In this document: positions 1-15,919 of the stretch, in pieces
Numbering within the stretch: position 1 is the stretch's first letter
How the letters are laid out: each line of letters opens with the position of its first letter
IMG/VR virus record: IMGVR_UViG_2698536348_000007
Span: 1-17,256 of that record
Strand: one strand, 5' to 3'
Source of the DNA: a virus
Taxonomy: Duplodnaviria; Heunggongvirae; Uroviricota; Caudoviricetes
Length of the DNA: 17,256 nucleotides
Made by a program: the position numbers and the translations under genes
Notes under the pieces: generated by a model
Database searches by the model: none
The model's input: the letters and a program-made list of their open reading frames with translations, nothing else
What the model was told of the DNA's origin: nothing

Positions 1-2
1 GG

Positions 3-629
3 GGAAAAACGAGTATTTTTAGTCATCCTGTTTACCTCTTTCTCAGGAAGTTTAGTCTCCAGGATTCCCGGGGCGGTTCAGGTCGTTTCATTGAGGAAAA
101 ACACTTCTTCAAACTTGAAGGTGAAACTTTACGTGAGTTCAAGCACAGAGTAGCTTTTAACTACTCTGTGAAAATTGCCCGTAACGTTCGCTCCCTCATC
201 CTCTGGACAGAACGAGGCGCAGCCCGTCACGCCAAAATGCTAGAAACCGATCAGGCGTGGGATGTGTTCGAAAAACTGGAAGACTGCTATTTCAGCCAGT
301 GCGAGAAAAATACTGGCAAACAAGAGAAGAAGCCCAACGGGCTTTCCGCAAAAGAAACAGACAGCCTTGTATGGCTGTGGGATTATGCCAACCGCTCACA
401 GGCATTGTTCCGTGAGTTGTATCCCGCATTAAAACTGATTCAGTCTGGCTATTCCGGCATATGCCACGACTACGGCTATGAGTTCTCGTATATCATCGGG
501 AGGGCGAGGGGCGTTTTAATTAATCACACGCGGGATATAGATATTTATGAGCCTGACGGGCCGACGAACCTTCTGGCATGGGAAAGGCTTAAGAACAAAG
601 AGTTGCCGCCTTCACTGCATCGCTACTGA
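3..629 (+). CDS. 5'-truncated phage early-region protein of unknown function (possibly antirepressor-like); start codon lies upstream of the window
   Basis: Reading frame is open from the window edge (no in-frame stop from position 3 to the TAC-TGA at 627-629). The first in-frame start codon in the window is GTG at 168 and has no Shine-Dalgarno, so the real start is probably upstream. A strong intrinsic terminator follows. Confidence 0.45.
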
Positions 630-646
630 CAATTGACAACTTAACA

Positions 647-670
647 AACCCAGCTTCGGCTGGGTTTTTT
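647..670 (+). terminator. Rho-independent terminator after the first ORF
   Basis: Hairpin aacccagc-ttcg-gctgggtt followed by a T-run (664-670), 18 nt after the stop codon. Confidence 0.6.
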
Positions 671-697
671 ATTGCTGAATTTTCAATATGAGAGGAC

Positions 698-1426
698 ATG
701 ACAATGAATGAGCTGATAAATAGCAGCATCATCAAAATGACCAGCATTGAAATCGCTGAGTTGGTGGGGAGTCGTCCAGATAACGTAAAAATATCAATAG
801 AGCGCCTGGCTGAATCTGGAGTTATTCAACTTCCTGCATTGCAGGTTTTCGAAAAAATCAATAACTTAGGACTGCGCCGTAGTGTCGAGGCTTACGTCTT
901 CGAAGGCGAACAAGGTAAGCGAGACAGCATTATTGTCGTCGCCCAATTGTCGCCGGAATTCACCGCTCGTCTTGTTGACCGTTGGCGAGAGCTTGAAGGG
1001 GCAACCGCGAAAATACCACAAACCTTTTCTGAGGCATTGCGCCTTGCGGCCGACCTTGAAGACCAGAAGGCTGAACTGGAGAAACAGCTTGCTCTCGCAG
1101 CACCTAAAGTTGAGTTTGCCGATCGAGTTGGCGAGGCCAGCGGAATTTTGATTGGAAACTTTGCAAAGGTTGTTGGTATTGGTCCAAACAAACTGTTTGC
1201 GTGGATGCGCGATCACAAAATCCTTATTGCTTCAGGTTCCCGGCGCAATGTGCCAATGCAGGAATATATGGATCGCGGCTATTTCACAGTGAAAGAAACA
1301 GCGGTCAATACAAATCACGGAATACAGATCTCGTTCACCACAAAAATCACCGGGCGTGGTCAACAGTGGCTGACCAGAAAGCCGCTCGATAACGGAATGC
1401 TGAAAGTAACAGGGGAGGCTGCTTAA
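698..1426 (+). CDS. roi: Roi-like phage DNA-binding/antirepressor protein with C-terminal KilAC (ANT) domain
   Basis: 242-aa ORF. The C-terminal segment FAKVVGIGPNKLFAWMRDHKIL...YMDRGYFTVKE...TTKITGRGQQWL matches the KilAC/ANT antirepressor domain as I recall it; position upstream of ybcO-rusA-Q fits Roi of HK022/H-19B-type phages. The ATG at 704 has better spacing to the AGAGGA Shine-Dalgarno than the ATG at 698, so the true start may be 704. Confidence 0.8.
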   Translation: MTMNELINSSIIKMTSIEIAELVGSRPDNVKISIERLAESGVIQLPALQVFEKINNLGLRRSVEAYVFEGEQGKRDSIIVVAQLSPEFTARLVDRWRELEGATAKIPQTFSEALRLAADLEDQKAELEKQLALAAPKVEFADRVGEASGILIGNFAKVVGIGPNKLFAWMRDHKILIASGSRRNVPMQEYMDRGYFTVKETAVNTNHGIQISFTTKITGRGQQWLTRKPLDNGMLKVTGEAA

Positions 1427-1716
1427 TGGCTAACCTACGCAAAGAAGCGCGCGGCAGAGAATGCCAGGTACGGATTTACGGCGTATGCAATGGCAATCCT
1501 GAAACGACAGTTCTGGCACATTACCGGATGGCTGGAATTTGCGGAACGGGAATGAAGCCTGACGACCTGATCGGTGCATGGGCTTGTAGTGACTGCCACG
1601 CGGAGATCGACCGACGCACCCGAATTCTCGACAACAACGACGCCAGACTTTACCACCTGGAAGGCGTGATCAGGACGCAGGCGATATTGCTGAAGGAGGG
1701 GAAGATTAAGTCATGA
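1426..1716 (+). CDS. ybcO: YbcO-like DUF1364 protein (putative nuclease) of the nin region
   Basis: 96-aa ORF, Cys/His-rich (CQVRIYGVCNG...CSDCHAEID), resembles DLP12 YbcO from memory. Start overlaps the roi stop (TAATG) and is preceded by AGGGGAGG. Confidence 0.75.
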   Translation: MANLRKEARGRECQVRIYGVCNGNPETTVLAHYRMAGICGTGMKPDDLIGAWACSDCHAEIDRRTRILDNNDARLYHLEGVIRTQAILLKEGKIKS

Positions 1717-2075
1717 ATGAATATGAGTTTGTGCTTCCCTGGCCGCCGACGGTGAATACCTACTGGCGAAGACGGGGAAGCCAGTACTACATCAGCGATA
1801 AAGGCCAGAAATACCGAAAAGACGTACAGCAAATCATCCGGCAACTCAGATTAGACATTTTCACTAAATCACGACTTCGCATCACAATTATTGCTGAACC
1901 ACCAGATTCCCGCCGTCGCGACCTCGATAACATCCTGAAAGGTTTACTCGACTCTCTTATCCACGCCGGATTTGCGGAAGACGACGAGCAATTCGATGAC
2001 ATTCGCGTAATTCGCGGCGTGAAAGTGCCTGGCGGTAGAGTGGGGATAAAAATCACCGAACTGGAGAACATTTGA
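1713..2075 (+). CDS. rusA: Holliday junction resolvase RusA
   Basis: 120-aa ORF with hallmark RusA motifs (LPWPPTVNTYW..., RRRDLDNILKGLLDSL). Strong Shine-Dalgarno GAAGGAGGGG upstream; start overlaps the ybcO stop (ATGA). Confidence 0.9.
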   Translation: MNEYEFVLPWPPTVNTYWRRRGSQYYISDKGQKYRKDVQQIIRQLRLDIFTKSRLRITIIAEPPDSRRRDLDNILKGLLDSLIHAGFAEDDEQFDDIRVIRGVKVPGGRVGIKITELENI

Positions 2076-2269
2076 TGAATGCTAAAATTCAAACGATACC
2101 TGAATTACTGATCTGCACCAGGGGAAATCAGACAGAAGTCGCCAGAATACTGAACTGCAATCGTGCTACAGTCAGAAAATACATTGATGATAAAGATGCG
2201 AAAAAGCACGCCGTCGTCAATGGCGTCCTTATGGTTCATCGCGGATGGGGTAAAGATACTGATGCGTGA
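2075..2269 (+). CDS. ninH: NinH-like small DNA-binding protein
   Basis: Strong resemblance to lambda NinH ([38 protein letters not shown]). The ORF track starts at TTG 2072; the ATG at 2075 overlaps the rusA stop (TGATG) and is the more likely start. Confidence 0.8.
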
Positions 2270-2696
2270 TATCCGGCAGGTTCTTGAGCGCTGGGGGGCA
2301 TGGGCGGTAAATAACTATGAGGATGTTACATGGTCGCCCATTGCTGCCGGATTTAAGGGACTGATCCCCGAAAAAGTAAAATCACGTCCACAGTGCTGTG
2401 ACGATGATGCGATGGTGATATGCGGGTGCATAGCCCGCCTTTACCGGAACAATCGCGATCTGCATGACTTGCTGGTTGATTACTACGTGTTGGGGGAGAC
2501 GTTCATGGCGCTGGCACGGAAACATGGGTGCTCTGACACCTGTATAGGTAAACGCCTTCACAAAGCGGAGGGGATTGTTGAAGGCATGCTGATGATGCTG
2601 GGAGTGAGGCTTGAGATGGATCGGTATGTTGAGCGTGAATTGCCGGGAGGGAGAAGCTCTGTATTTTATCAGCGAAAAAATAGTTTACGATCGTAA
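2262..2696 (+). CDS. Q: Late-gene antitermination protein Q (phage 21/82 QuuD-like family)
   Basis: From the ATG at 2262 the product ([25 protein letters not shown]...[16 protein letters not shown]...) matches Q/QuuD-type antiterminators from memory. The upstream extension of the track ORF (2163) overlaps ninH and is rejected. Position immediately before the late promoter/lysis region fits. Confidence 0.85.
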
Positions 2697-2720
2697 AAAT
2701 CTGCATATCATGATAAGAGT
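2684..2720 (+). promoter_or_regulatory. Candidate late promoter PR' / Q-utilisation region at the end of Q
   Basis: -35-like TTTACG (2684-2689), about 16-bp spacer, -10-like TATCAT (2706-2711), with a second -10-like GATAAG just downstream. In lambdoid phages PR' sits directly after Q. Hexamer matches are weak, so the exact placement is uncertain. Confidence 0.3.
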
Positions 2721-2741
2721 GGTTACATTGCCACGCAGCCG

Positions 2742-2766
2742 AACCCGCCGATGCGCGGGTTTTTTT
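2742..2766 (+). terminator. Intrinsic terminator 45-70 nt downstream of Q (candidate tR' or Q-gene terminator)
   Basis: GC stem cccgc/gcggg (2744-2748 / 2755-2759) followed by T7 (2760-2766). Confidence 0.5.
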
Positions 2767-2946
2767 GTACCCAGAATCCTGTGAGCTATACGGAAAGTAC
2801 ACAGAAAGGAAGGTACGACCGCAATTAATAACAAAATCTTAAAAATCTCATATGGCACTATTAGTTTTCTAAATATTGTATATTTTAAGTATTGCAGGAT
2901 AACCCTGTAACGAAGTTTGCGTAACAGCATTTTGCTCTACGAGTTT

Positions 2947-2976
2947 GCCAGCCTCCCCTGGTGGCTGGCTTTTTTT
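2947..2976 (+). terminator. Intrinsic terminator (alternative tR' candidate)
   Basis: 7-bp stem gccagcc/ggctggc (2947-2953 / 2963-2969), 9-nt loop, followed by T7 (2970-2976). Confidence 0.55.
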
Positions 2977-3094
2977 GTATCCGTTCAACGGGAATGTTAC
3001 ATACCTCACAATTAAGTCAGTTGAATGTTGTCTGCCCGGATGAGAATTTGTTAGAAAAAACTGCATGGTGAATCCCCCTGAGCGGAGGGGCGAC

Positions 3095-3120
3095 TGGTGA
3101 CGGTATAATCTCTGATTATC
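3095..3120 (+). promoter_or_regulatory. Promoter-like element: consensus -10 TATAAT (3104-3109) with a downstream -10-like repeat GATTAT (3114-3119)
   Basis: Perfect TATAAT hexamer in a non-coding interval; upstream A-tract (3054-3060); -35 is poor. A -10-like repeat just downstream is the architecture of sigma70 promoter-proximal pause sites used by Q antiterminators. Confidence 0.3.
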
Positions 3121-3208
3121 AAAACGAGAATGACGCGGGTTTAGTGGCACCGGGCTGAACTCACCGGGAGGCACCCGGCACCATGCAATGGCACATAGCG
3201 CCACTCTC

Positions 3209-3234
3209 CAGCCCCTCTCCGGAGGGGCTTTCTT
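3209..3234 (+). terminator. Intrinsic terminator-like hairpin closing a candidate ~115-nt small transcript
   Basis: Perfect 7-bp stem gcccctc/gaggggc (3211-3217 / 3222-3228) with tetraloop tccg, followed by tttctt. Confidence 0.45.
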
Positions 3235-3240
3235 ATGGAC

Positions 3241-3268
3241 AAAAAAGCCCGCGCTGGGAGACGCGGGC
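3241..3268 (-). terminator. Minus-strand intrinsic terminator convergent with the previous hairpin
   Basis: On the + strand: A6 (3241-3246) then 7-bp stem gcccgcg/cgcgggc (3247-3253 / 3262-3268). Read on the - strand this is a hairpin followed by U6. Confidence 0.4.
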
Positions 3269-3461
3269 GGCAAGGAATGAACAATGAAACGTGAAGTAAT
3301 ATTTCAGCTGGCGAATAATACCCCATAGTAATCACTCTGCGCAACTGCGCGACCTTTTTCGAATTGCGGGCTGTAGTCTCCCTTCTGCCATTGTCCTGTA
3401 ACTTCCGGACTTCAGCCCGCTCCTTATTTTACTCACAATATTATCCCGGCCGGGAGGATTC

Positions 3462-5372
3462 ATGGCATTTAAACACTATGATGTTGTCAGGGCGGCGTCG
3501 CCGTCAGACCTTGCGAAACGAATAACTCAAAAACTGAAGGAAGGGTGGCAGCCTTATGGTAGTGCGCTGATTTCGACAGCTGGTTATGGTGCGGAGTTCA
3601 TCCAGCCAGTTGTGAGTGAGGGGAGCATCTCATCACCAGAGGAGCCAGGCAACCGTCCGACGACCTCAGCGCCTTCTGTTGCGCCAGAATATTACTATGT
3701 GATCGCGCTTGCTGGTCAGTCCAATGGTATGTCATACGGTGAGGGACTGCCATTACCGGATACATTCGACAGCCCTGATCCACGTATTAAACAGTTAGCG
3801 CGTCGCAGTACGGTGACACCGGGCGGTGCAGCATGCAAATATAACGACATCATTCCGGCGGACCATTGTCTGCATGATGTGCAGGACATGAGCCGTCTTA
3901 ACCATCCGAAAGCGGACCTGTCAAAGGGGCAGTACGGAACCGTGGGGCAGGGGCTGCATATCGCCAAAAAACTGCTGCCGTTTATACCGGCGAATGCGGG
4001 CATTCTGCTGGTTCCGTGCTGTCGTGGTGGTTCAGCGTTCACCACCGGAGCTGATGGCACATACAGTGACGCGAGTGGCGCCTCGGAGAATTCAACCCGC
4101 TGGGGTGTGGACAAGCCGCTGTATAAGGACCTTATCGGTCGAACAAAAGCGGCACTGGAGAAGAACCCGAAAAATGTGCTGTTTGCCGTGGTGTGGATGC
4201 AGGGGGAATTTGATTTTGGCGGTACGCCGGCAAATCATGCCGCACAGTTTGGTGCGCTGGTTGATAAATTCCGTGCAGACCTGGCGGATATGGCAGGCCA
4301 GTGCGTCGGTGGCTCTGCTGGCGGTGTTCCCTGGATATGCGGGGACACGACGTATTTCTGGAAGCAGAAGAACGAATCCACGTACCAGACGGTGTACGGC
4401 AGCTATAAAAATAAAACGGAAAAGAATATCCATTTCGTACCGTTCATGACCGATGAGAACGGGGTGAATGTGCCGACGAACAAACCGGAAGAAGACCCGG
4501 ACATTCCGGGTATCGGTTATTACGGTTCGAAATGGCGTGACAGCTCAGCCACCTGGACGTCACAGGACAGGGCGAGCCATTTCAGTTCATGGGCTCGCCG
4601 TGGGATTATTTCCGACCGTCTGGCAACGGCGATTCTGAGCTGCGCGGGTAAGTCTTCTGCGTTTGTTAATGGTACTGCCGGGGTGGTTGTTCCAGACAGA
4701 CCGGTTACCACCTCAGAGTCTGTAATTTTTTACGATGCCAAAAAAGCTACAGACAATCAGCTGAAACCCTATGGCTGGGACGGTGTGTATGGCAGGCGCA
4801 CACTGGTTGATGACAGCGGCAATAAAGCTCTGCGAATTGAGAAAAATAACAGCGCGAAATCCTGGTCAATGTACTGTGATATTGCTGCAGACAAGGCAAA
4901 ACTTTTACTGGAAAAAGGCGGGGAAATTGCTGTCCGGTTTAAAATCCCCGAAAACGTCAATCTTGAGACAACCAGAAACAAGTATGCCTTTGGTTTGTAC
5001 TGGCGAATAGCGGAATGGCCGGGTGAGGGTGGTGAAGGCCATCTGAGTTCTTTCTTTGTCCAGACAGATAAAGCCAGTATTAATGTTGCATACCATCATA
5101 CAGTTAATCAACAAAAAGAACTTGGCACGTTTGGCGCATTCGACCATGACTGGCATACGCTTGCATTTAAATTTAAGGGCAGTAACAGCATTAATGTTAC
5201 TCCGGTGCTTGATGGTGTGGATGGACAGGCGTTTGACCTGGTGAAATGGGCCAATACTGCTAATGGACTCAACAGGTTTGTCATTACGGATATTACAGGT
5301 AGTGCAGAAACCTACCCTGTACTTATTGATACGGTGGAAGTTAAAGCAAACAAAGCTGGAGCAGCCGCATAA
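3462..5372 (+). CDS. nanS-p: NanS-p-type prophage sialate (9-O-acetyl-N-acetylneuraminate) esterase, YjhS-like; N-terminal DUF1737-like domain plus SASA/SGNH esterase domain
   Basis: 636-aa ORF with GGAGG Shine-Dalgarno 6 nt upstream. N-terminus MAFKHYDVVRAASPSDLAKRITQKLKEGWQPYG and the ALAGQSNGMSYGEG...VVWMQGEFD esterase core match the nanS-p/yjhS family found downstream of stx in Stx phages, from memory. Sits in the Q-to-holin moron locus. Confidence 0.85.
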   Translation: MAFKHYDVVRAASPSDLAKRITQKLKEGWQPYGSALISTAGYGAEFIQPVVSEGSISSPEEPGNRPTTSAPSVAPEYYYVIALAGQSNGMSYGEGLPLPDTFDSPDPRIKQLARRSTVTPGGAACKYNDIIPADHCLHDVQDMSRLNHPKADLSKGQYGTVGQGLHIAKKLLPFIPANAGILLVPCCRGGSAFTTGADGTYSDASGASENSTRWGVDKPLYKDLIGRTKAALEKNPKNVLFAVVWMQGEFDFGGTPANHAAQFGALVDKFRADLADMAGQCVGGSAGGVPWICGDTTYFWKQKNESTYQTVYGSYKNKTEKNIHFVPFMTDENGVNVPTNKPEEDPDIPGIGYYGSKWRDSSATWTSQDRASHFSSWARRGIISDRLATAILSCAGKSSAFVNGTAGVVVPDRPVTTSESVIFYDAKKATDNQLKPYGWDGVYGRRTLVDDSGNKALRIEKNNSAKSWSMYCDIAADKAKLLLEKGGEIAVRFKIPENVNLETTRNKYAFGLYWRIAEWPGEGGEGHLSSFFVQTDKASINVAYHHTVNQQKELGTFGAFDHDWHTLAFKFKGSNSINVTPVLDGVDGQAFDLVKWANTANGLNRFVITDITGSAETYPVLIDTVEVKANKAGAAA

Positions 5373-5377
5373 TTGCT

Positions 5378-5414
5378 AAAAAAAGCCGCCAGCGGCAGGA
5401 ATGGAAGCTGGCGG
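5378..5414 (-). terminator. Minus-strand intrinsic terminator directly after the nanS-p stop
   Basis: + strand: A7 (5378-5384) then 8-bp stem ccgccagc/gctggcgg (5386-5393 / 5407-5414) with a 13-nt loop. No T-run follows on the + strand, so it works as a terminator only for leftward transcription (it may still stabilise the 3' end of nanS-p mRNA). Confidence 0.4.
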
Positions 5415-5511
5415 AGGTAATCCCAATGGAGAATGTAAAGAAAAGATGCTTTCGTACATTGGTTTTTTAAATGAAAACAATTCTCATTGTCAACCATAAC
5501 GGTAAGAAATT

Positions 5512-5694
5512 ATGACATTTATTCATCAGGTGATGCTGTACTTCTGTACGGCGGTCTGTGTGCTGTATCTTCTTTCGGGTGGGTACAGGGCTGTGCGCGA
5601 TTTCTGGTGCAGGCAGATTGATAAAAGGGCCGCTGAGAAAATCAGCGCCAGTCAGTCAGCCGGAAGCAAACCCGAAGAACCCGTTACTCCTTAA
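5512..5694 (+). CDS. Hypothetical small membrane protein (60 aa; one predicted transmembrane helix followed by a charged tail)
   Basis: ORF MTFIHQVMLYFCTAVCVLYLLSGG... Weak Shine-Dalgarno. A 14-codon upstream ORF (5471-5515, MKTILIVNHNGKKL) ends with a TGA overlapping this ATG (ATGA). A promoter-like TTGTCA (5487-5492) lies just upstream. Coding status is uncertain. Confidence 0.3.
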   Translation: MTFIHQVMLYFCTAVCVLYLLSGGYRAVRDFWCRQIDKRAAEKISASQSAGSKPEEPVTP

Positions 5695-5719
5695 CAACCC
5701 CTTTCAGCGAGAAAATCCC

Positions 5720-5965
5720 ATGTCAGAAATCACATCCCTGGTCACTGCAGAGGCAGTGAAGGAAGTCCTGCGCTCTGAAGAAGTCCGGAGCGCACTGAAA
5801 CAGAAACTTCGCCAGAATCTTGAGTCGCGTCTTGATGCAGAAGTGGATGCCATTCTGGATGAGCTGCTGGGCGTAGCAGCGGTTCCTGAGCCGGAAGGTA
5901 TCGCGGGTGACGGGAGTGCTTCAGATGGCGGTGAACCTACACCTGACAGCGACATGATGATGTAA
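5720..5965 (+). CDS. Hypothetical acidic protein (82 aa) upstream of the holin
   Basis: [54 protein letters not shown]... has protein-like helical composition and an acidic C-terminus. Weak GAGA Shine-Dalgarno. The antisense ORF 5704-5955 is low-complexity and rejected. Confidence 0.4.
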
Positions 5966-6041
5966 GCATGCGCAAGGGACCATCGGTGTGTGCCGGTGGT
6001 CTTTATATTGTTGTGAGCTTCCGGATTGCGGGAGACGGGGT

Positions 6042-6257
6042 ATGTACCAGATGGAAAAAATCACAACAGGTGTGTCATACACCACGTCAGCGGTGGGAAC
6101 GGGCTACTGGTTCCTGCAGTTGCTGGACAGGGTTTCCCCGTCTCAGTGGGCGGCAATAGGCGTGCTGGGGAGTCTGCTGTTTGGGCTGCTGACGTACCTG
6201 ACTAACCTGTATTTCAAAATCAAAGAGGACCGGCGTAAGGCGGCGCGGGGAGAGTAA
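6042..6257 (+). CDS. S: Class II holin/antiholin, S21-type (pinholin-like) with dual start motif
   Basis: From the ATG at 6042 the product [71 protein letters not shown] closely resembles phage 21 S (from memory). Two in-frame starts (M1 and M4 at 6051) are typical of holin/antiholin pairs. GGGAGACGGGG Shine-Dalgarno upstream. The longer track ORF from 5988 is rejected. Confidence 0.85.
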
Positions 6258-6261
6258 GCTG

Positions 6262-6795
6262 ATGAGCAGGAAATTCCGCTATGGTTTATCAGCGGTCGTT
6301 CTGGCGCTGATTGCTGCGGGCGCTTCTGCGCCTGAAATCCTCGACCAGTTTCTTGACGAAAAAGAAGGTAACCACACCACGGCATACCGTGATGGTGCGG
6401 GTATCTGGACTATCTGCCGCGGTGCCATCCTGGTGGATGGCAAACCTGTCGTTCCGGGCATGAAGTTGTCGAAGGAAAAATGCGACCGGGTTAACGCCAT
6501 TGAGCGTGATAAGGCGCTGGCATGGGTGGAGAAAAACATCAGAGTGCCACTGACCGAACCGCAGAAAGCGGGCATCGCGTCATTCTGTCCGTACAACATC
6601 GGGCCTTCGAAATGCTTCACCTCAACGTTTTACCGGAAACTGAACGCAGGAGACCGGAAAGGTGCATGTGCTGAAATCCGCCGATGGATATATGACGGCG
6701 GCAGGGACTGTCGGAACCGCTCAAATAACTGTTACGGGCAGGTATCGCGGCGTGACCAGGAGAGCGCGCTGGCGTGCTGGAGTATCGACAGATAA
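6262..6795 (+). CDS. R: SAR endolysin (R21-type, T4-lysozyme-like muramidase, GH24)
   Basis: 177-aa ORF with a Gly/Ala-rich N-terminal signal-anchor-release segment (YGLSAVVLALIAAGASAPE) and catalytic signature EGNHTTAYRDGAGIWTICRG (E...D...T). Immediately follows the holin; GGGGAGAG Shine-Dalgarno. Confidence 0.9.
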   Translation: MSRKFRYGLSAVVLALIAAGASAPEILDQFLDEKEGNHTTAYRDGAGIWTICRGAILVDGKPVVPGMKLSKEKCDRVNAIERDKALAWVEKNIRVPLTEPQKAGIASFCPYNIGPSKCFTSTFYRKLNAGDRKGACAEIRRWIYDGGRDCRNRSNNCYGQVSRRDQESALACWSIDR

Positions 6796-6879
6796 GCAGA
6801 ATATTCTGCTGAAAAATGCCGTTGACCAACGCGAACGGATAACACGAAATCCTGCGAACTGGCAAAATTTAAGTGAGTA

Positions 6880-6926
6880 AAAGTAAAAACCCCGTTTGTT
6901 GGCAGCAAGCGGGGTTTTGTGTTTCT
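6880..6926. terminator. Bidirectional intrinsic terminator between endolysin and Rz
   Basis: 9-bp stem ccccgtttg/caagcgggg (6890-6898 / 6906-6914, one G-U pair) with 7-nt loop, flanked by an A-rich tract upstream (6880-6889) and a T-rich tract downstream (6915-6926). Confidence 0.5.
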
Positions 6927-7015
6927 GACCTTGAATAAGGCAAGGGAGAAATTATGGGTAGGGAGGTTCTTTCCCTGTGAGGAAGTATAAAAGATTCTTT
7001 CTGAGGTTGTCCATT

Positions 7016-7129
7016 ATGAAAGGCATTGAGGTGGAGACGCCAGCAAGTCTGGATTTAACAAGAGCGGCAGCTTTTGCCATTCGTATTGTGGCAATTGCTG
7101 TTCTGGTCTGGGCAATCCGTTGGTGGTGA
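7016..7129 (+). CDS. Hypothetical 37-aa C-terminally membrane-anchored peptide, translationally coupled to Rz
   Basis: ORF MKGIEVETPASLDLTRAAAFAIRIVAIAVLVWAIRWW, not in the supplied track (below 60 aa). GAGG 8 nt upstream of the ATG. Its TGA (7127-7129) is 1 nt before the Rz ATG (7131). Coding status unproven. Confidence 0.3.
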   Translation: MKGIEVETPASLDLTRAAAFAIRIVAIAVLVWAIRWW

Positions 7130-7130
7130 T

Positions 7131-7589
7131 ATGAATCGTGTGCTGTATGGCGTGCTTATTGTCCTGCTGCTTGGTTGTGGATCGCTGTGGCTGGCAACAG
7201 ACCATTACCGTGATAACGCCATCACCTACAAAGAGCAGCGAGATGATGCGAAGACAAAACTCAGCCAGGCGAACGCCACCATTGCTGACATACAGCAGCG
7301 CCAGCGTGATGTTGCTGCACTCGATGCCAGATACACCAGGGAGCTTGCTGATGCTAACGCGACTATTGAAAGTCTCCGTGCTGATGTTTCTGCTGGGCGT
7401 AAGCGCCTGCAAGTCGCCGCCACCTGTGCAAAGTCAACGACCGGAGCCAGCGGCATGGGCGATGGAGAAAGCTCAGGACTTACAGCAGATGCTGAACTCA
7501 ATTATTACCGTCTCCGAAGTGGAATCGACAAGATAACCGCGCAGGTTAACTACCTGCAGGAGTACATCAGGATGCAATGCCTCGATTAA
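7131..7589 (+). CDS. Rz: Rz i-spanin (inner-membrane spanin subunit)
   Basis: From the ATG at 7131: MNRVLYGVLIVLLLGCGSLWLATDHYRDNAITYKEQRDDAK...RDVAALDARYTRELADA closely parallels lambda Rz (N-terminal TM helix, then HYRDNAITYK). The track ORF start at 7074 is an upstream extension without support. Confidence 0.85.
   Translation: MNRVLYGVLIVLLLGCGSLWLATDHYRDNAITYKEQRDDAKTKLSQANATIADIQQRQRDVAALDARYTRELADANATIESLRADVSAGRKRLQVAATCAKSTTGASGMGDGESSGLTADAELNYYRLRSGIDKITAQVNYLQEYIRMQCLD
7351..7536 (+). CDS. Rz1: Rz1 o-spanin lipoprotein, embedded in the +1 frame of Rz
   Basis: ATG at 7351 with GGGAG 8 nt upstream. Product MLTRLLKVSVLMFLLGVSACKSPPPVQSQRPEPAAWAMEKAQ... has a lipoprotein signal peptide, lipobox-like VSAC and the proline-rich mature region typical of Rz1. 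Entirely inside Rz, as in lambda. Confidence 0.7.
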   Translation: MLTRLLKVSVLMFLLGVSACKSPPPVQSQRPEPAAWAMEKAQDLQQMLNSIITVSEVESTR

Positions 7590-7593
7590 CAGA

Positions 7594-7618
7594 GCCAGCT
7601 CAATCGCTGGCCTTTTTT
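7594..7618 (+). terminator. Intrinsic terminator after Rz/Rz1
   Basis: Stem gccagc/gctggc (7594-7599 / 7606-7611) with 6-nt loop, followed by T6 (7613-7618). Confidence 0.6.
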
Positions 7619-7669
7619 ATGAGGAGAGATATAACCTGAATCAATGCCAGTGCATTATCAACAAATGGA

Positions 7670-8251
7670 TCACTGGGTAAGCTCGTTTGGTTTTAAATGT
7701 CCGTCGAGAATCAGATTGTGATTTTCCCGATGCAGAACCAGTGTGCCCATATAATCAGGTTTAAATCTCCATCCATTCATTTTTTTTGCAATTCTGGACA
7801 GACAGTGATTATGTGTGAAAATCACAGTAACATGATCTGATTTTGATATTTTAAGGATATTATTTACTGCGTTATCATCACATGTCGATATGTCCGGAAT
7901 AGTTGCTGTCTTACCTCCCGAAAAAAAAGTGGCTGTCTGCATTGTTCGGAGTGTGTCTGTAGAATAGAGACTGTAGTATGGAAACATTCTTCTGAATTTA
8001 TCTCCATATTGTTGAGCTTTGTTAGCTCCGTTTACTGTGATTCCCTCATGTGCTGAAAGACATATTCTTTGGGAGCGATCGCATCTTTCCCCATGCCGGA
8101 TGAGAAAAATAATGGGATGTTTCTGGTTAATCTCAGTGACATCGTTCACATCAAGTCTGACTGGAGTTCTTACAATGTATATGATGGATACAGAAACGAT
8201 TATGACAAGTAAAAATATAAGAAGAGATTTTGTTAGCGTTTGATTTAACAT
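7670..8251 (-). CDS. Ais/PmrG-family lipopolysaccharide core heptose(II)-phosphate phosphatase homologue (histidine-phosphatase superfamily) with N-terminal signal/anchor; prophage cargo gene
   Basis: Minus-strand ORF. Motifs IRHGERCDRS (RHG catalytic motif), GITV.G, LYSTDTLRT.QTA, IFTHNHCL and FKPDY align with E. coli Ais as I recall it. Hydrophobic N-terminus LLIFLLVIIVSVSIIYIV. The start at 8251 (MLNQTL..., AAGGGA Shine-Dalgarno 7 nt upstream) is preferred over the track start at 8284. Opposite orientation to the flanking phage genes, in the position lambda uses for bor. Confidence 0.75.
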   Translation of the reverse strand: MLNQTLTKSLLIFLLVIIVSVSIIYIVRTPVRLDVNDVTEINQKHPIIFLIRHGERCDRSQRICLSAHEGITVNGANKAQQYGDKFRRMFPYYSLYSTDTLRTMQTATFFSGGKTATIPDISTCDDNAVNNILKISKSDHVTVIFTHNHCLSRIAKKMNGWRFKPDYMGTLVLHRENHNLILDGHLKPNELTQ

Positions 8252-8305
8252 ATAAATTCCCTTGTCTGTGTTGAAAATGGGCATTATTATGCGTAAATCT
8301 TATGT

Positions 8306-8319
8306 AATCCTTAAGGATT
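8306..8319. promoter_or_regulatory. Perfect 14-bp palindrome AATCCTTAAGGATT in the promoter region of the Ais-like gene
   Basis: Exactly self-complementary, 22-35 bp upstream of the first in-frame ATG (8284) of the minus-strand gene, next to a CATAAT -10-like hexamer. Contains CTTAAG half-sites reminiscent of PmrA/BasR boxes (CTTAAT-like), which regulate chromosomal ais. Confidence 0.3.
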
Positions 8320-8853
8320 GTCTGACGTGGTGATATGACGCGAAATACAGTGGGTACACAGAATGCTGTGAACAACGACGAAATGGGCATTGGTAGCGGT
8401 ACTGGTGCTTTTTTTATTGGTTGGTTGCTCAAGTCTTGATAAAGCGCGTTAGCTTTTTGGTATTGCCTCTTAGGTCTGTAAAATTGCCGACGGTGTCCGG
8501 CAGTGCATGCAGGGCTGATCGTCTATGAGAACAGAATATATTGCTAAAAATGAAGTGTGCGTCAATGCTTATAAAGCATGCAATTCTGTATTTCTAACTA
8601 TTCAATAAAATAAATTCTTTCTGTCGCAGTGAATATACAAATGTTGATCAGCGCTCGATGTGGCGACGGGTTTCTATATCAGGAGACTTTGGCATTTATC
8701 CGCGAGGCAGCCTATCTGGTGCTGTAGTGGAATGAAGCGGATATAACCTAAATAAGGTTAAACATTAATCAGACATGGCTCTGCTGTGTGAAATCTGAAA
8801 ATTTACAGCAGTCATTGTGCATCAGTTTTTAACAGAGAACGTCAGAAGGTGAC

Positions 8854-9669
8854 ATGGCAAAGCTGGACTGGAAAAAGCTGGAGCAGGCATTTCGACGCGA
8901 ACATGTCAAAACCGGCATAAAGCTTCAGGACTGGTGCCGTCAGAACAATATCAGTTATGACACGGCTCGGCGGTACATTAAACTGCGCAAACACTCCCCC
9001 AGAAATACAGAGAAAAGTGCGCAGAAAAATGCGCAAATTGATGATCAAAAAAGTGCGCAGAAATCTGACGGCAACTCCAGTCATGACGAGCCTTCAGGCG
9101 ATGATGGTTGTGATGAAAAATGCGCAAATTTGGCAGAAACGAAACGGACTCGTGGTTCCAGACTTTTGCCACCTTCAAATGCTTTTTCTCAGCGTAACAC
9201 CCACGCCGTCAGACACCGTGGATACGCGAAGTATCTCGAGGCAGATAACCTCATAGATGATGCAGTCGGAATGGAACTTGCCGATGAACTGGTGTTTACC
9301 CGGGCCCGCGCACTTTCAGTAACAGGAACACTGAAAAAAATGTTCGCCGACCTGAAAGAGGCGGCTGACGTGGAAACCCGCGTTGCTCTGTACGACAAAA
9401 TACTCAAAGCTGAACAGGCTCTTGACCGGAATATTGCCCGTATCGAGTCAATTGAACGCTCATTGCTGACGCTGGACGTTCTGGCTGAAACAGCACCAAA
9501 ACTTCGTGCTGACCGGGAAAGAACCAACGCTGCCAGAGATAAACTCAGAGCGGAAACCGATATTCTGACCAGCCAGCGTCGGGGCGTTGTTACGCCTGTC
9601 AGTGACATCGTGTCATCGCTGCATGAAATGAGTAATTCGGGGAGACTGGATGACATTCCGGAAGAATGA
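8854..9669 (+). CDS. Terminase small subunit (putative)
   Basis: 271-aa ORF immediately upstream of, and overlapping, the large terminase. N-terminal HTH-like segment (KLQDWCRQNNISYDTARRYIK) and coiled-coil C-terminus are typical of small terminases. Assigned mainly by synteny. Confidence 0.65.
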   Translation: MAKLDWKKLEQAFRREHVKTGIKLQDWCRQNNISYDTARRYIKLRKHSPRNTEKSAQKNAQIDDQKSAQKSDGNSSHDEPSGDDGCDEKCANLAETKRTRGSRLLPPSNAFSQRNTHAVRHRGYAKYLEADNLIDDAVGMELADELVFTRARALSVTGTLKKMFADLKEAADVETRVALYDKILKAEQALDRNIARIESIERSLLTLDVLAETAPKLRADRERTNAARDKLRAETDILTSQRRGVVTPVSDIVSSLHEMSNSGRLDDIPEE

Positions 9670-11356
9670 ACCGCGATGTGATGAACCGTCAGAAATGACA
9701 GAGGCCGAACAACGTCTGTTCATCATGACTAAACTGAGCAATCCCTGGTGGCGGCTCAATCATCTCTACAAGATACAGAACGAAAAAGGTGAGCTGGTCA
9801 CCTTCAGAATGCGACCGGCGCAGCGCCAGTTGTTCCGGAGCATGCACAATAAAAATATTATCCTGAAAGCACGCCAGCTGGGGTTTTCCACGGCCATTGA
9901 TATTTATCTTCTCGACCAGGCATTATTCATACCGCATCTCAAATGCGGGATTGTCGCTCAGGATAAACAGGCTGCCAGTGAAATTTTCCGCACCAAAATT
10001 GCTGTACCGTTCGATCATCTTCCTGACTGGCTGAGAGCCTCATTCACCATCGTTGAACGTCGTAGCGGAGCCAGCGGTGGCTATATCCTGTTTGGGCACG
10101 GCTCGAGTATCCAGGTGGCAACCTCATTCCGTTCAGGTACGGTGCAGCGCCTGCATATCTCAGAGCACGGCAAAATTTGCGCAAAATATCCGGCTAAGGC
10201 GAAAGAGCTGCGAACCGGTACACTTAATGCCGTCTCTGATGAGTGCATTATTTTTGATGAATCCACTGCTGAAGGTGTGGGTGGTGATTTTTACGAGATG
10301 AGTAACCGGGCACAGGAAATCACTGCATCAGGGCTGGCGCTGACGCCACAGGATTATAAATTCCATTTTTACGCCTGGTGGCAGGATCTCAAATACAGCG
10401 CCAGAGTGCCGGAAAGCGGACTTAAGCTGTCACGGGAAAAAACAGCGTATTTTTCTGCGGTTGAAAAAGCAATGAACATCACGCTTACCGATGAGCAGAA
10501 ACACTGGTACATCTGCAAGGAAACTGAACAGCGTGAGGAAATGAAGCAGGAGTTTCCCTCAACACCACAGGAGGCGTTTCTGACGTCCGGACGACGGGTG
10601 TTCAGTGCGGAAAGCACGCTGCAGGCAGAGTCATTCTGTTCGCCACCGCTGATTGTTTATGACATTGAACCGGTTACAGGAACGAAGACCAAAGCGCAGT
10701 CTCTGCGTGACGGGAATAAAGCCGAACAGCACCGGACGCTGATGAATTATCTGCTGGTCTGGGAGCTACCGGATCCGGATGAAGAGTATGTATGCGGAGC
10801 GGATACCGCTGAGGGGCTGGAGCACGGAGACCGCTCATCGCTGGATATCATCAGATGTAGTAATGGTGAGCAGGTAGCCCACTGGTTTGGTCATCTCGAT
10901 GCGGAGCTTTTCGCTCATCTCATTGCGCAGGTCTGCCGTATGTACAACAACGCGTTTGTGGGGCCGGAGCGTAACAATCACGGACATGCCGTTATCCTGA
11001 AACTCCGGGAACTCTATCCGACGCGTTATATCTACAACGAACAGCACCTTGACCAGGCATATGACGACGATACGCCCCGTCTTGGCTGGCTGACAACCCG
11101 CCAGAGTAAACCGGTCCTGACTGAGGGAATGAAAACGCTGCTGAATAACGGCCTGTCGGGGATCCGCTGGACGGGCACATTATCAGAAATGAACACCTAC
11201 GTTTATGACGCGAAAGGCTCCATGAATGCACAGGAAGGCTGTTTTGATGATCAGCTTATGAGCTACATGATTGCCCAGGAGATGCGCGCCAGAATGCCGG
11301 TGAGGGTAAGACAGAAAACGGATAAACGCAGAACCACACACTGGATGGCTCACTGA
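9650..11356 (+). CDS. Terminase large subunit
   Basis: 568-aa ORF with GGGGAG Shine-Dalgarno 5 nt upstream of the ATG at 9650, overlapping the end of the small-subunit gene. Followed directly by the portal (stop/start overlap TGATG). Alternative starts at 9695 and 9725 cannot be excluded. Confidence 0.8.
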   Translation: MTFRKNEPRCDEPSEMTEAEQRLFIMTKLSNPWWRLNHLYKIQNEKGELVTFRMRPAQRQLFRSMHNKNIILKARQLGFSTAIDIYLLDQALFIPHLKCGIVAQDKQAASEIFRTKIAVPFDHLPDWLRASFTIVERRSGASGGYILFGHGSSIQVATSFRSGTVQRLHISEHGKICAKYPAKAKELRTGTLNAVSDECIIFDESTAEGVGGDFYEMSNRAQEITASGLALTPQDYKFHFYAWWQDLKYSARVPESGLKLSREKTAYFSAVEKAMNITLTDEQKHWYICKETEQREEMKQEFPSTPQEAFLTSGRRVFSAESTLQAESFCSPPLIVYDIEPVTGTKTKAQSLRDGNKAEQHRTLMNYLLVWELPDPDEEYVCGADTAEGLEHGDRSSLDIIRCSNGEQVAHWFGHLDAELFAHLIAQVCRMYNNAFVGPERNNHGHAVILKLRELYPTRYIYNEQHLDQAYDDDTPRLGWLTTRQSKPVLTEGMKTLLNNGLSGIRWTGTLSEMNTYVYDAKGSMNAQEGCFDDQLMSYMIAQEMRARMPVRVRQKTDKRRTTHWMAH

Positions 11357-13500
11357 TGAAAAATGAAACTAATACCATGGCGACGAAAAACGACAACGGA
11401 GCCACGCCGCGTTTTTCTCAGCGCCAGTTACAGGCGCTTTGTTCTGATATTGACAGTCAGCCTAAATGGCGCGATGCCGCAAACAAGGCCTGTGCGTATT
11501 ACGATGGTGACCAGTTGCCACCAGAAGTTCTTCAGGTACTGAAAGATCGCGGTCAGCCGATGACCATCCATAACCTCATCGCGCCTACCGTTGATGGTGT
11601 TCTGGGTATGGAGGCCAAAACGCGGACTGATCTGGTGGTGATGTCAGACGAGCCAGATGATGAAACTGAAAAACTGGCTGAAGCTATTAATGCTGAATTT
11701 GCCGATGCATGCCGCCTTGGCAATATGAATAAAGCCCGCTCTGATGCCTATGCGGAACAAATCAAGGCGGGGCTCAGCTGGGTGGAGGTCAGACGGAACA
11801 GCGATCCGTTCGGGCCTGAGTTTAAGGTGTCTACTGTCAGCCGGAATGAAGTGTTCTGGGACTGGCTCAGCCGGGAAGCTGATTTAAGTGACTGCCGCTG
11901 GCTGATGCGCCGCCGCTGGATGGATACCGATGAGGCAAAAGCCACATTCCCGGGAATGGCTCAGGTTATCGATTATGCCATTGATGACTGGCGTGGTTTT
12001 GTCGATACCACGGTTACTGAAGGCCAGCCCAGTCCGTTGATGAGTGCATGGGAAGAGTATCAGTCATGGGATCGTAAGGAGAACGAATGGCTTCAGCGTG
12101 AACGCCGTCGTGTGCTGCTTCAGGTGGTTTATTACCGTACATTCGAGCGTCTTCCGGTGATTGAACTCAGTAATGGACGGGTGGTGGCCTTTGATAAAAA
12201 TAATCTGATGCATGCGGTGGCTGTGGCATCCGGGCGGGTGCAGGTGAGAGTCGGGCGGGTAAGTCGTATTCGTGAAGCCTGGTTTGTGGGACCGCACTTT
12301 ATTGTGGATCGCCCCTGCAGTGCGCCGCAGGGGATGTTCCCGCTGGTTCCCTTCTGGGGATACCGGAAGGATAAAACCGGGGAGCCTTACGGGCTGATTT
12401 CCCGGGCCATTCCGGCACAGGATGAGGTGAATTTTCGTCGTATAAAACTGACGTGGTTGCTTCAGGCCAAACGCGTGATTATGGACGAGGATGCCACCCA
12501 GTTGTCAGACAACGAGCTGATGGAGCAGATCGAGCGTCCGGATGGCATTATTAAACTGAATCCGGCCCGAAAAAATCAGAAAAGCGTTGCTGATGTTTTC
12601 CGGGTTGAACAGGATTTTCAGGTTGCCAGCCAGCAGTTTCAGGTCATGCAGGAGTCGGAAAAACTTATCCAGGACACGATGGGGGTTTATTCCGCATTTC
12701 TCGGGCAGGATTCAAATGCATCGTCCGGCGTGGCGATCAGCAACCTGGTGGAGCAGGGAGCCACAACCCTTGCCGAAATCAACGATAACTACCAGTTTGC
12801 CTGCCAGCAGGTGGGAAGGCTGTTGCTCGCTTATCTTCTCGATGGCCTGAAAAAGCGGCGTAATCATGCGGTGGTGATTAATCGTGATGATCGCCAGCGT
12901 CGCCAGACCATTGTTCTCAATGCTGAAGGTGATAATGGTGAACTGACCAATGATATTTCAAGGTTAAATACACATATTGCGCTGGCTCCTGTTCAGCAGA
13001 CACCGGCGTTTAAGGCACAGCTTGCACAGCGAATGTCAGAGGTTATTCAGGGGCTGCCACCTCAGGTGCAGGCCGTCGTGCTCGACCTGTGGGTTAACCT
13101 TCTGGATGTGCCGCAGAAACAGGAATTTGTCGAACGTATTCGTGCGGCGCTGGGGACACCAAAATCACCGGATGAGATGACCCCGGAAGAGCAGCAGGCC
13201 GCTCAGCAGCAACAGGCCCAGGAGCAGCAACAACAGGAACTGCAGATGCGCGAAATGGCAGGCCGGGTGGCTAAACTGGAAGCAGAAGCTGCCAGGGCAC
13301 AGGCAGCTGCGCAACGGGATAATGCTGGCGCACAACGGGATGTCGCCGCGGCACAGGGACAGCGTTATGTGGATGCGCTCAACCAGGCGCATACGGCAGA
13401 AATCATTACCGGCATACAGAATATGGAACAGGAGCAGGAAGCTCTTCAGCAACAGATGCTACATACACTACAACAGCGGATGCATGAATTGCCGCTATGA
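11356..13500 (+). CDS. Portal protein (P22-like, with C-terminal Gln/Ala-rich helical extension)
   Basis: 714-aa ORF following terminase. Size and C-terminal coiled-coil (EEQQAAQQQQAQEQQQQELQMREMAGRVAKLEAEAARAQAAAQ) resemble the P22 gp1 portal barrel; synteny terminase-portal-scaffold-coat. Confidence 0.8.
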   Translation: MKNETNTMATKNDNGATPRFSQRQLQALCSDIDSQPKWRDAANKACAYYDGDQLPPEVLQVLKDRGQPMTIHNLIAPTVDGVLGMEAKTRTDLVVMSDEPDDETEKLAEAINAEFADACRLGNMNKARSDAYAEQIKAGLSWVEVRRNSDPFGPEFKVSTVSRNEVFWDWLSREADLSDCRWLMRRRWMDTDEAKATFPGMAQVIDYAIDDWRGFVDTTVTEGQPSPLMSAWEEYQSWDRKENEWLQRERRRVLLQVVYYRTFERLPVIELSNGRVVAFDKNNLMHAVAVASGRVQVRVGRVSRIREAWFVGPHFIVDRPCSAPQGMFPLVPFWGYRKDKTGEPYGLISRAIPAQDEVNFRRIKLTWLLQAKRVIMDEDATQLSDNELMEQIERPDGIIKLNPARKNQKSVADVFRVEQDFQVASQQFQVMQESEKLIQDTMGVYSAFLGQDSNASSGVAISNLVEQGATTLAEINDNYQFACQQVGRLLLAYLLDGLKKRRNHAVVINRDDRQRRQTIVLNAEGDNGELTNDISRLNTHIALAPVQQTPAFKAQLAQRMSEVIQGLPPQVQAVVLDLWVNLLDVPQKQEFVERIRAALGTPKSPDEMTPEEQQAAQQQQAQEQQQQELQMREMAGRVAKLEAEAARAQAAAQRDNAGAQRDVAAAQGQRYVDALNQAHTAEIITGIQNMEQEQEALQQQMLHTLQQRMHELPL

Positions 13501-13520
13501 ATATCCTGAACTTAACGGAA

Positions 13521-13544
13521 CCCCGTCATCGTACGGGGTTTTTT
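13521..13544 (+). terminator. Intrinsic terminator/attenuator between portal and scaffold genes
   Basis: 6-bp stem ccccgt/acgggg (13521-13526 / 13533-13538) with 6-nt loop, then T6 (13539-13544), 21 nt after the portal stop. Confidence 0.5.
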
Positions 13545-13657
13545 GTCTCCGGAGATAAGCGTTCCGGGAGCGGTGCGCTTATTCGCGGGGGCAGCGATAA
13601 GCCTTATTTACTCAACCATTCGGATCTGTCCGATAAACAGACCATGCGGAGTTATTT

Positions 13658-14665
13658 ATGGATTTTGAATTTACGGGTGAAGAAACCCCGGAACAACTGG
13701 AAAAAATGCTGGAAGGGCTTGGAGATGTGGATATTGACGGTCACGAACAGGACGGCGTGACAGAGGCCGCCACAGAAAATCATGCGGATGAGGCAGCACA
13801 GACACAGACGGGCGATAACACTGCGGCACCGACGCCGGATGCCAGTGCTGAGCAGACGCAGGACGTGAAGGAGCCGGAGGCGAAGGGTGTGCTCACCCGC
13901 GATGGTAAACACGTCATTCCCTATGAAGTCCTTGAGGCTGAACGTTCCGGTAAGCAGCGGGCCGAACAGGAAGCCGCACTTCTTCGGGGACAGATAGCCG
14001 AAGAAAAACGCCTGGTTGAACTGCTGACGTCTCAGATCCACCAGGCCGGTATGAAACCCGCACCGTTACCGGAAAACGAAAAAATCTCTGATGAGAAGAT
14101 TGCCCGTATCAGGGAGATGTATCCGGAAATTGGCGACGCGGTGGCTTCGCTTATCCGTAAAAATAACTATCTCCAGTCCCGTGTTCAGCAATCAGCACAG
14201 CAGGCAGAAGGTCATGGTGGTGAGGATTTATCACCGGTTCTTGATGCAATGAATGACGTGCCGGTGCTGAAAACGTGGCAGAACTCCGATCCGGATCGCT
14301 TCTCGGTTGCCGTATCCATCGACGGGAAGCTCCAGAATGACCCCGCATGGAAAGACAAACCGCTCACTGAACGTTTCGCCGAAGTGGCCCGCCGTACGCA
14401 GCTCGCTTTCGGTGAAGCCAGTGAGCCGCCTTCTGATGACAAGGCAGACAACACGGATATCCGGAAAACGGCGGAAGAAAAAGTGAAAGCCGCTGAACGG
14501 GAGATGGCAGTGCCTGCTTCCCCGTCAGAGCTTGGCAACACGGCTTCCGTCGGAACCGGTGATAATTTTGAACGGTTACTTGGTGCTTCTCATTCAGAGG
14601 CAGAGGCGATTATGCGCGGTATGACGAATGCTGAAATAGACGCGCTTCTGGAGAAGCTCGGGTAA
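13658..14665 (+). CDS. Scaffolding protein (putative)
   Basis: 335-aa highly acidic, helix/coiled-coil-type ORF between portal and major capsid genes; GCGGAG Shine-Dalgarno 6 nt upstream. Assigned by composition and synteny. Confidence 0.65.
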   Translation: MDFEFTGEETPEQLEKMLEGLGDVDIDGHEQDGVTEAATENHADEAAQTQTGDNTAAPTPDASAEQTQDVKEPEAKGVLTRDGKHVIPYEVLEAERSGKQRAEQEAALLRGQIAEEKRLVELLTSQIHQAGMKPAPLPENEKISDEKIARIREMYPEIGDAVASLIRKNNYLQSRVQQSAQQAEGHGGEDLSPVLDAMNDVPVLKTWQNSDPDRFSVAVSIDGKLQNDPAWKDKPLTERFAEVARRTQLAFGEASEPPSDDKADNTDIRKTAEEKVKAAEREMAVPASPSELGNTASVGTGDNFERLLGASHSEAEAIMRGMTNAEIDALLEKLG

Positions 14666-15903: not shown

Positions 15904-15919
15904 TTTTTCCTTTCCTCAT

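Follow-up and report, generated by a model that had tools for sequence, protein, structure and literature searches.

The subject of this analysis is the spacer between the endolysin gene R and the spanin gene Rz, together with the small membrane protein gene it carries, in a 17,256-nucleotide stretch of phage DNA (the window) that spans positions 1 to 17,256 of the IMG/VR record IMGVR_UViG_2698536348_000007. The list of open reading frames (ORFs) and the RefSeq annotation of an identical locus identify the content of the window as the late region of an Escherichia coli lambdoid prophage. R (6262-6795, plus strand) encodes an endolysin of the signal-arrest-release (SAR) type, annotated as 'lysozyme' in the identical locus, and Rz (7131-7589, plus strand), the i-spanin gene, is annotated there as 'lysis protein'. 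With the end of R at 6795 and the Rz ATG at 7131, the spacer measures 335 nt (6796-7130), as a preliminary description of this DNA had stated. On the plus strand it begins with an R 3' untranslated block (6796-6878), conserved along with the hairpin behind it in S21-type and Shiga toxin (Stx) phages. This is followed by that hairpin, HP1 (6879-6925), by a second, smaller hairpin, HP2 (6929-6948), by an out-of-frame mini-ORF (6954-6980) and by the small gene. The part of the gene recognized earlier, 37 codons from ATG 7016 to 7126 with the TGA at 7127-7129, reads exactly as first given (MKGIEVETPASLDLTRAAAFAIRIVAIAVLVWAIRWW), and the single base T7130 separates its stop codon from the Rz ATG.

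The small ORF is a real gene under strong purifying selection. Compared with the second E. coli variant (type B), its 37-codon core is 79% identical; 24 of 114 bases differ, yet only four residues change, all conservatively. The ratio of nonsynonymous to synonymous divergence (dN/dS; Nei-Gojobori method, window versus type B) is 0.02-0.03 in the core, with a dS of ~2.2 that is saturated, and 0.1 in a 13-codon extension upstream of it; against a more distant copy (locus L007) it is 0.24. Frame conservation in relatives, on which the preliminary description had made the coding status depend, was found in 86 of 86 ORF-bearing loci, and the extension contains neither a stop codon nor a frameshift in them. 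The protein belongs to PHROG 4493/1115, a group of phage proteins of unassigned function: residues 1-50 align with positions 1-54 of the 56-position phrog_4493 profile (E=1.4e-24), and phrog_1115 is matched with E=2.1e-11. AlphaFold2, run on a 17-sequence alignment, returned a low-confidence helix at residues 3-15, a loop and a helix at residues 24-49 with a predicted local distance difference test score (pLDDT) above 90. The predicted protein has its N-terminus in the cytoplasm and opens with a basic amphipathic helix, which a short acidic linker joins to a C-terminal membrane helix that ends in RWW. The confident helix and the low dN/dS agree with the C-terminally anchored membrane peptide proposed at the outset.

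Neither the small protein nor the neighbouring small ORFs matched any entry in Pfam, NCBIfam or PADLOC, and no family in Pfam, NCBIfam, PADLOC or Rfam supported a toxin or lysis-regulator reading. The supplements of the Sakai ribosome profiling paper on small genes (PMC5597208) contain neither the peptide nor its DNA. The tblastn search of the phage collection gave a match confined to the first 15 residues, the low-complexity filter masking the hydrophobic part. Two scans of species-representative genomes yielded no relative, the sole hit being a spurious one in Streptomyces; type genomes therefore appear to lack the family, which is mostly restricted to prophages of E. coli and to metagenomic phages. 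A spanin function for the small protein was rejected, as its membrane helix lies at the extreme C-terminus (residues 24-49 of 50), with neither a periplasmic domain nor a lipobox.

The start of the protein had been placed at ATG 7016. The frame and the C-terminus stand, but the product is most likely 50 amino acids long, starting 13 codons earlier at GTG 6977 (6977-7129, plus strand; MRKYKRFFLRLSIMKGIEVETPASLDLTRAAAFAIRIVAIAVLVWAIRWW, with the initiator methionine written, although GTG literally encodes valine). The phrog_4493 match begins at residue 1, and distant homologues recovered by an exhaustive HMMER search (P0066, P0067 and P0071; for example MTVYRKTFRLRISMNAGLELDAP...VRWW) keep the N-terminal extension with its motif K/R-x-Y-K/R...F-x-L-R-x-S-M. 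One type A locus (L009) and one type B locus (L061) have ATG in place of GTG 6977, the equivalent codon in the E. coli variant L004 is also ATG, and a GGGAGG lies 10 nt upstream of GTG 6977.

ATG 7016 may serve as a second, internal start. GAGG at 7003-7006, formed with the AGG codon of Arg10, precedes it by 9 nt (candidate start signal 7003-7018, plus strand, opening the 37-residue ORF 7016-7129), so that GTG 6977 and ATG 7016 each have a ribosome-binding site of their own. The methionine is present in all ten homologues tabulated, and in 10 of 10 units an arginine 3-4 codons before it is encoded by AGG or AGA, which places GAGG 6-9 nt ahead of the ATG. Other arginine codons in the small genes are mostly CGN (Fisher p = 0.0014, with three additional nearby arginine codons counted in the first class). 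Synonymous divergence is 0.35 in the extension against 2.2 in the core, as overlapping signals would produce. Taken together, these features are suggestive of a dual start.

HP1 looks terminator-like on both strands and is a selected structure. It consists of an A-run (6879-6889), a stem (6886-6918) whose core pairs 6890-6898 with 6906-6914, and a T-run (6915-6925), with 15 pairs counted and six G-C pairs in the stem; a G+C-rich stem with a T-run on each strand, as expected of a bidirectional intrinsic terminator, is present. In a terminator scan that returned 13 sites, against 2.9 +/- 1.7 in shuffled sequences, HP1 ranked best (tail GTGTTTCTGA; plus-strand tail TTTTGTGTTT, minus-strand tail TTTTTACTTTTAC), and RNAfold gives it a folding energy of about -21 kcal/mol. 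Across 14 related units 91.8% of the cells are paired, 6 of 13 pairs show compensatory changes, the covariation score was reached by 0 of 500 shuffles, and every slid register collapses. The strong bidirectional terminator that the preliminary description saw in the spacer is thus supported by the scan, by the fold and by the A-run and T-run on opposite flanks. Rfam gave no match in this region at either of two thresholds; within 6750-7180 the best hit reached 24.6 bits against a gathering threshold of 47. We also considered HP1 as part of a known prophage small RNA and rejected this: AsxR, AgvB and the EcOnc RNAs sit 3' of stx (PMC4104026), PasA and PasC lie between the esterase and holin genes (bioRxiv 10.64898/2026.05.13.724894), and none of these is located at the R-Rz junction.

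HP2, like HP1, is maintained by compensatory changes. In the window CCTTG (6929-6933) pairs across a loop with CAAGG (6941-6945) to form a 5-bp plus-strand stem that is part of the minimum-free-energy fold; the 3' arm of this stem extends into AAGGGAG (6942-6948), the purine-rich ribosome-binding site. The position is kept in 14 of 17 units as a 5-bp stem with a loop of 6-7 nt, built from five different complementary arm pairs. Downstream of it, the window and type B have 20-30 nt more than L004 between the ribosome-binding site and the K-Y-K codons; in L004 the main ORF has its ATG directly behind the equivalent of this site. The extra segment leaves the short upstream ORF 6954-6980 (plus strand; eight codons, MGREVLSL, as read from the sequence), which is in another frame and whose TGA overlaps GTG 6977 as GTGA. 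This mini-ORF probably remains from the ancestral start, and translation from GTG 6977 could be coupled to it. A conserved peptide was rejected as its explanation, its frame and sequence differing between types A and B.

The preliminary description regarded the spacer as an insertion relative to lambda and phage 21. The segment between R and Rz is indeed there, but it is not private to this prophage: in the lysis cassettes of S21-type and Stx phages, as relatives show, the R-Rz junction is a recognized variable slot. Escherichia phage GER2 has the spacer at 99.4% identity, with the 37-residue ORF annotated as hypothetical, and RefSeq lists the product of that ORF as WP_000675931.1. Phage records that match bases 1-155 of the spacer, the hairpin included, number 322 (80-95% identity; mostly Stx-converting phages and H-19B), and the ORF-bearing part is found at a query coverage of at least 80% in 792 of 5,426 complete E. 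coli genomes, O157:H7 strains included. In H-19B the R-Rz spacer is 297 nt long and encodes a different membrane ORF of 45 residues, likewise with RWW at its end and Rz just behind it; in 933W and many Stx2 phages the slot is filled by ant and a membrane ORF of 43-49 residues, and in other phages by two or three small membrane ORFs.

Two further small families were observed in slots of this kind. Peptides resembling phrog_6632 (for example MFDFSKLIREIRVMAEKLSTWKFILIWLVFVIMASGYFIGQIRWW) end in (I/V)RWW followed by the stop codon and occur in H-19B (L003, ~2170-2297), in L090 (4805-4903) and in L134 (5865-6002); they are sometimes located behind the same type of hairpin, and the RWW C-terminus is common to otherwise dissimilar peptides. 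A third family, phrog_4906 (MSDKLIT...SSSGLLG, 43 residues), lies just upstream of Rz in 933W (L093, 1671-1820), where the reference record leaves the ORF without annotation, as well as in L004 (2354-2485) and L008 (1212-1343). An ORF annotated in GER2 that corresponds to 6662-6880 and overlaps the end of R was set aside when inspection of the alignment by eye revealed variation without a coding pattern.

Comparison of the loci shows that HP1 belongs to the small gene's own unit and that HP1, HP2 and the RWW gene move as a block between late-gene contexts. Homology between types A and B starts at the A-run of HP1, upstream of which the sequences are unrelated. The gene before the unit in E. 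coli is a SAR endolysin gene, as is R here, a GH108 endolysin gene or an ORF behind an M15 peptidase gene. The gene after it is either Rz or the gene of a 60-residue lipoprotein (phrog_7528), and the junction to both is the same (...TGGTGGTGA(T/C)ATGA...). HP1 accompanies the small gene even where no spanin gene follows. On metagenomic phage contigs the unit occurs in one to four copies, often in tandem: in L090 they are located behind a lambda-type capsid gene and ahead of the genes for a holin (phrog_920) and a SAR endolysin, and in L091, L092 and L134 they lie between head and tail genes.

Several observations concern the surroundings of these units. The type B cassettes (L006, 1653-1837; L007, 1612-1832) contain two holin-like genes and a GH108 or M15 endolysin gene, and in the stretch examined of both no Rz/Rz1 was seen, only the small ORF and a lipoprotein of 51-63 residues (lipobox LVGC, three cysteines in the mature part) following. 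The idea that the small protein and the lipoprotein together replace Rz/Rz1 in type B cassettes was rejected, the small protein having no periplasmic domain. Whereas in type B the lipoprotein gene directly follows the small ORF, in the window Rz/Rz1 and an Ais-like gene lie in between, and a pseudogene of the 60-residue lipoprotein (phrog_7528) is found at 8348-8515 (plus strand; 70% identity, three in-frame stops). Its position apart from the small ORF suggests an ancestral ORF-lipoprotein pair split by recombination. In L134 two minus-strand genes (157 and 77 residues; 3174-3890) lie in the structural operon right after a pair of hairpin-ORF units, which suggests that such sites collect accessory genes.

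We propose that the spacer is a conserved accessory unit encoding a late, otherwise silenced membrane protein that tunes lysis, and give this explanation as a whole a probability of about one half. No plus-strand promoter-like site was found between HP1 and the ORF in the 16 units scanned, so the small gene would be transcribed from upstream, here from the late promoter under Q antitermination. In lambdoid phages all late genes, that is, every gene downstream of tR', need Q, and the Q-modified polymerase reads through intrinsic terminators. HP1 would accordingly stop unmodified RNA polymerase arriving from either direction without hindering the Q-modified late polymerase, and the small gene, Rz and Rz1 would stay silent unless the polymerase is modified. 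At the level of translation, HP2, the mini-ORF and the structure around GTG 6977 may keep synthesis low or coupled, two isoforms may be made (50 residues from GTG 6977 and 37 from ATG 7016), and translation of Rz may be coupled to the small ORF, the stop and start codons being 1 nt apart and TGGTGGTGA doubling as a ribosome-binding site.

The position of the gene and its 1-nt spacing to Rz suggest that the small protein is made along with the lysis proteins, and the fact that a small membrane peptide is silenced at two levels suggests that the product is harmful if mistimed. It would act on the membrane late in infection and tune lysis, for example through the timing of holin triggering or through membrane de-energization, and be dispensable for lysis itself. 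The double silencing, the membrane anchor and the position lead us to guess, with low confidence, that the protein is a membrane-active accessory of late infection, modulating lysis perhaps through a pair of long and short isoforms.

Several points weigh against this proposal. The distant homologues in L091, L092 and L134 lie among structural rather than lysis genes, which means that a lysis-specific role is not family-wide, and the small protein matched no holin, antiholin, spanin or defence model in PHROGs, Pfam, NCBIfam or PADLOC. The T-run behind HP1 is weak in the metagenomic units, where termination may be inefficient in places, and HP1 could instead serve as an element of RNA stability or as a recombination boundary. 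The counts for HP1 covariation, HP2 recurrence and arginine codon bias come from related sequences, which are not independent samples. Termination, read-through, the use of both start codons and the coupling to Rz are all inferred from sequence features.

The unit could alternatively be a lysogenic-conversion moron, its protein being made in the lysogen to the benefit of the host or prophage, for instance by superinfection exclusion at the inner membrane as in HK97 gp15, with no part in lysis. We consider this unlikely, although the gene is patchily present in a known variable slot between conserved genes, the distant homologues are inserted between structural genes like classical morons, and neighbouring genes of the window, such as the minus-strand Ais-like phosphatase gene, are themselves morons. 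The missing promoter-like site (16 of 16 units), the location of the terminator upstream rather than downstream of the gene, with no terminator between the ORF and Rz, and the occlusion of the ribosome-binding site by HP2 argue for silence in the lysogen.

The version given in the preliminary description, in which the 37-residue peptide from ATG 7016 is the sole product and the terminator gates the spanins through Q-dependent read-through, seems to us just as doubtful. It has on its side that the Prokaryotic Genome Annotation Pipeline (PGAP) and most depositors call the 37-residue ORF, that GAGG lies 9 nt upstream of ATG 7016 and that L007 lacks the extension. Yet the extension is conserved as protein in the distant homologues, is part of the PHROG profile and is free of stops and frameshifts in 86 loci, and GTG and ATG interchange at 6977. 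Gating would also add little, the genes past tR' already depending on Q, and the presence of HP1 with the small gene where no spanin gene follows does not fit a spanin-specific gate.

A type I toxin-antitoxin-like module has somewhat poorer prospects. Here the protein would be a membrane toxin whose translation is repressed by an antisense RNA of ~95 nt that covers the GTG start and the ribosome-binding site and ends at HP1. A minus-strand promoter-like site at 6984-7013 (TGGACA, 18 nt, TATACT; 10 of 12 positions, a consensus match only) would give a transcript that crosses the GTG start in antisense and ends at HP1, and the site is conserved in L006 and L004, both E. coli variants. The minus-strand T-run of HP1 is excellent, the A-rich 5' flank is conserved in every unit, the predicted antisense RNA folds well (z = -3.4), and synonymous divergence under the putative promoter is unusually low; tandem small hydrophobic ORFs with hairpins between them also resemble the ibs/sib and zor/orz loci. 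Against this, the promoter-like site is absent in 13 of 13 distant units scanned, which led us to reject the antisense RNA as a family-wide feature, and its TATACT is merely the reverse of the conserved Lys-Tyr codons. Promoter scans found no promoter for a toxin mRNA, and Rfam gave no antitoxin RNA family, ohsC (E = 5-10) being at chance level.

Least likely of all is a selfish passenger: HP1 and the junctions would chiefly act as recombination-boundary or RNA-stability elements that shuffle small genes, and the peptide would affect neither phage nor host. In favour of this reading, the mosaic joints coincide exactly with HP1 and with the RWW-stop/ATG junction (...TGGTGGTGATATGA(A/C)CG is common to Rz and the lipoprotein gene), units are duplicated in tandem, and the lipoprotein pseudogene lies further downstream in the window. 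However, the protein must itself be under selection, given its dN/dS of 0.02-0.03 and its conservation in phages of very different kinds.

The remaining features of the window lie on either side of the spacer. Upstream are a NanS-p-type esterase gene (3462-5372), small DUF1378 and DUF826 genes between it and the holin gene, and the cassette's own S21-type dual-start holin gene (6043-6257), identified, like the esterase gene, from the ORF list and RefSeq. Downstream, the o-spanin gene Rz1 (7384-7536; lipobox LLGVSAC) is embedded in Rz in the +1 frame, a gene for an Ais-like lipopolysaccharide core heptose(II)-phosphate phosphatase (7670-8284, minus strand) lies between Rz and the terminase genes, and the small terminase subunit gene follows it. 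The Ais-like gene, a moron-like insert, faces the lysis genes, and transcription of it would continue into Rz in the antisense direction.

Directly after the R stop codon there is a perfect 14-bp palindrome, GCAGAATATTCTGC (6796-6809, plus strand), which is imperfect in most relatives and probably without significance. The second-best terminator-like hairpin (5975-6004, plus strand; 13 pairs) follows the DUF826 gene just upstream of the holin gene; as the PasA/PasC RNAs are located between esterase and holin genes (10.64898/2026.05.13.724894), it could be the 3' end of an RNA of this type. The only Rfam match in the whole window is STnc100, full length at 3035-3240 (plus strand; 165 bits, E=8e-38), just upstream of the esterase gene; a 2026 preprint (10.64898/2026.05.13.724894) relates STnc100 to the prophage small RNA PasD, which adjoins Q and the esterase.

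Part of this was already known. The gene is listed in RefSeq and PHROGs as a hypothetical protein, the variability of the slot has been recognized, and small membrane proteins of lysis cassettes, morons and dual-start lysis genes are established as kinds. Our literature searches returned no description of the unit of hairpin, HP2 and RWW peptide, of its mobility between late-gene contexts or of the two-start evidence.

Prophages with the small gene in their lysis cassette occur in about one in seven complete E. coli genomes, O157:H7 included, and in Stx phages the release of toxin and phage is governed by lysis timing. Very strong purifying selection acts on the gene although it is without an assigned function, and among the extra small membrane proteins that stand outside holin-endolysin-spanin models of lysis it makes a well-defined candidate. 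The architecture of the unit provides a simple search pattern for more such genes, and suggests products toxic enough for two silencing layers. Should the function prove trivial, what remains is an ordinary accessory gene that occupies a known variable slot. A more far-reaching idea, which we regard as a long shot, is that the units form an unrecognized class of mobile, hairpin-delimited late cassettes whose tail-anchored RWW peptides, in a cationic 50-residue and an acidic 37-residue form, act as an effector/inhibitor pair like S105/S107 and set the de-energization of the inner membrane. If true, such peptides would be a fourth, modular component of Gram-negative lysis timing, present in enterohaemorrhagic E. 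coli O157:H7 and ~15% of complete E. coli genomes.

Among known systems, the R-Rz slot of 933W and H-19B has the same position, and the conserved block after R, with its hairpin, is the same in H-19B and Stx phages; the occupant here belongs to another family (PHROG 4493/1115), and 933W lacks the CCCCG...CGGGG hairpin. Like the morons of lambdoid phages (Juhala et al. 2000, as cited in PMC4104026), of which the inner-membrane exclusion protein HK97 gp15 is an example, the unit is a patchy extra small gene for a membrane protein, with a hairpin of its own, between conserved late genes. Classical morons, however, are flanked by a promoter on the upstream side and a terminator on the downstream side, with expression in the lysogen, whereas here the terminator lies upstream and no promoter was found. 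With type I toxins (Hok, TisB, ZorO, Ibs and Ldr) the small protein shares a single hydrophobic helix in a product of 30-50 residues, a leader structure hiding the ribosome-binding site, tandem copies and, possibly, an antisense RNA sharing the bidirectional terminator. It differs from them in having no sequence or RNA-family match and no toxin promoter, in an antisense promoter that is not family-wide and in being located in a phage late operon.

The lysis protein L of MS2-type RNA phages is a small protein in which a hydrophobic C-terminal half comes after a basic N-terminal segment, an arrangement that the small protein shares. There is no detectable homology between the two, and the cassette studied here has a complete holin-endolysin-spanin set, which makes an autonomous lysis role unnecessary. 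The holin/antiholin pairs of lambda (S107/S105) and phage 21 (S21 71/68) differ in having two or three membrane helices instead of one and forms that are 2-3 rather than 13 residues apart; the small protein also has no charged cytoplasmic C-terminal tail and no holin-model match, and its putative dual start is read from sequence. What it would have in common with these pairs is a small membrane protein of the lysis cassette with two in-frame starts, each with its own ribosome-binding site, RNA structure around the first start, and a longer form distinguished by additional positive charge at the N-terminus.

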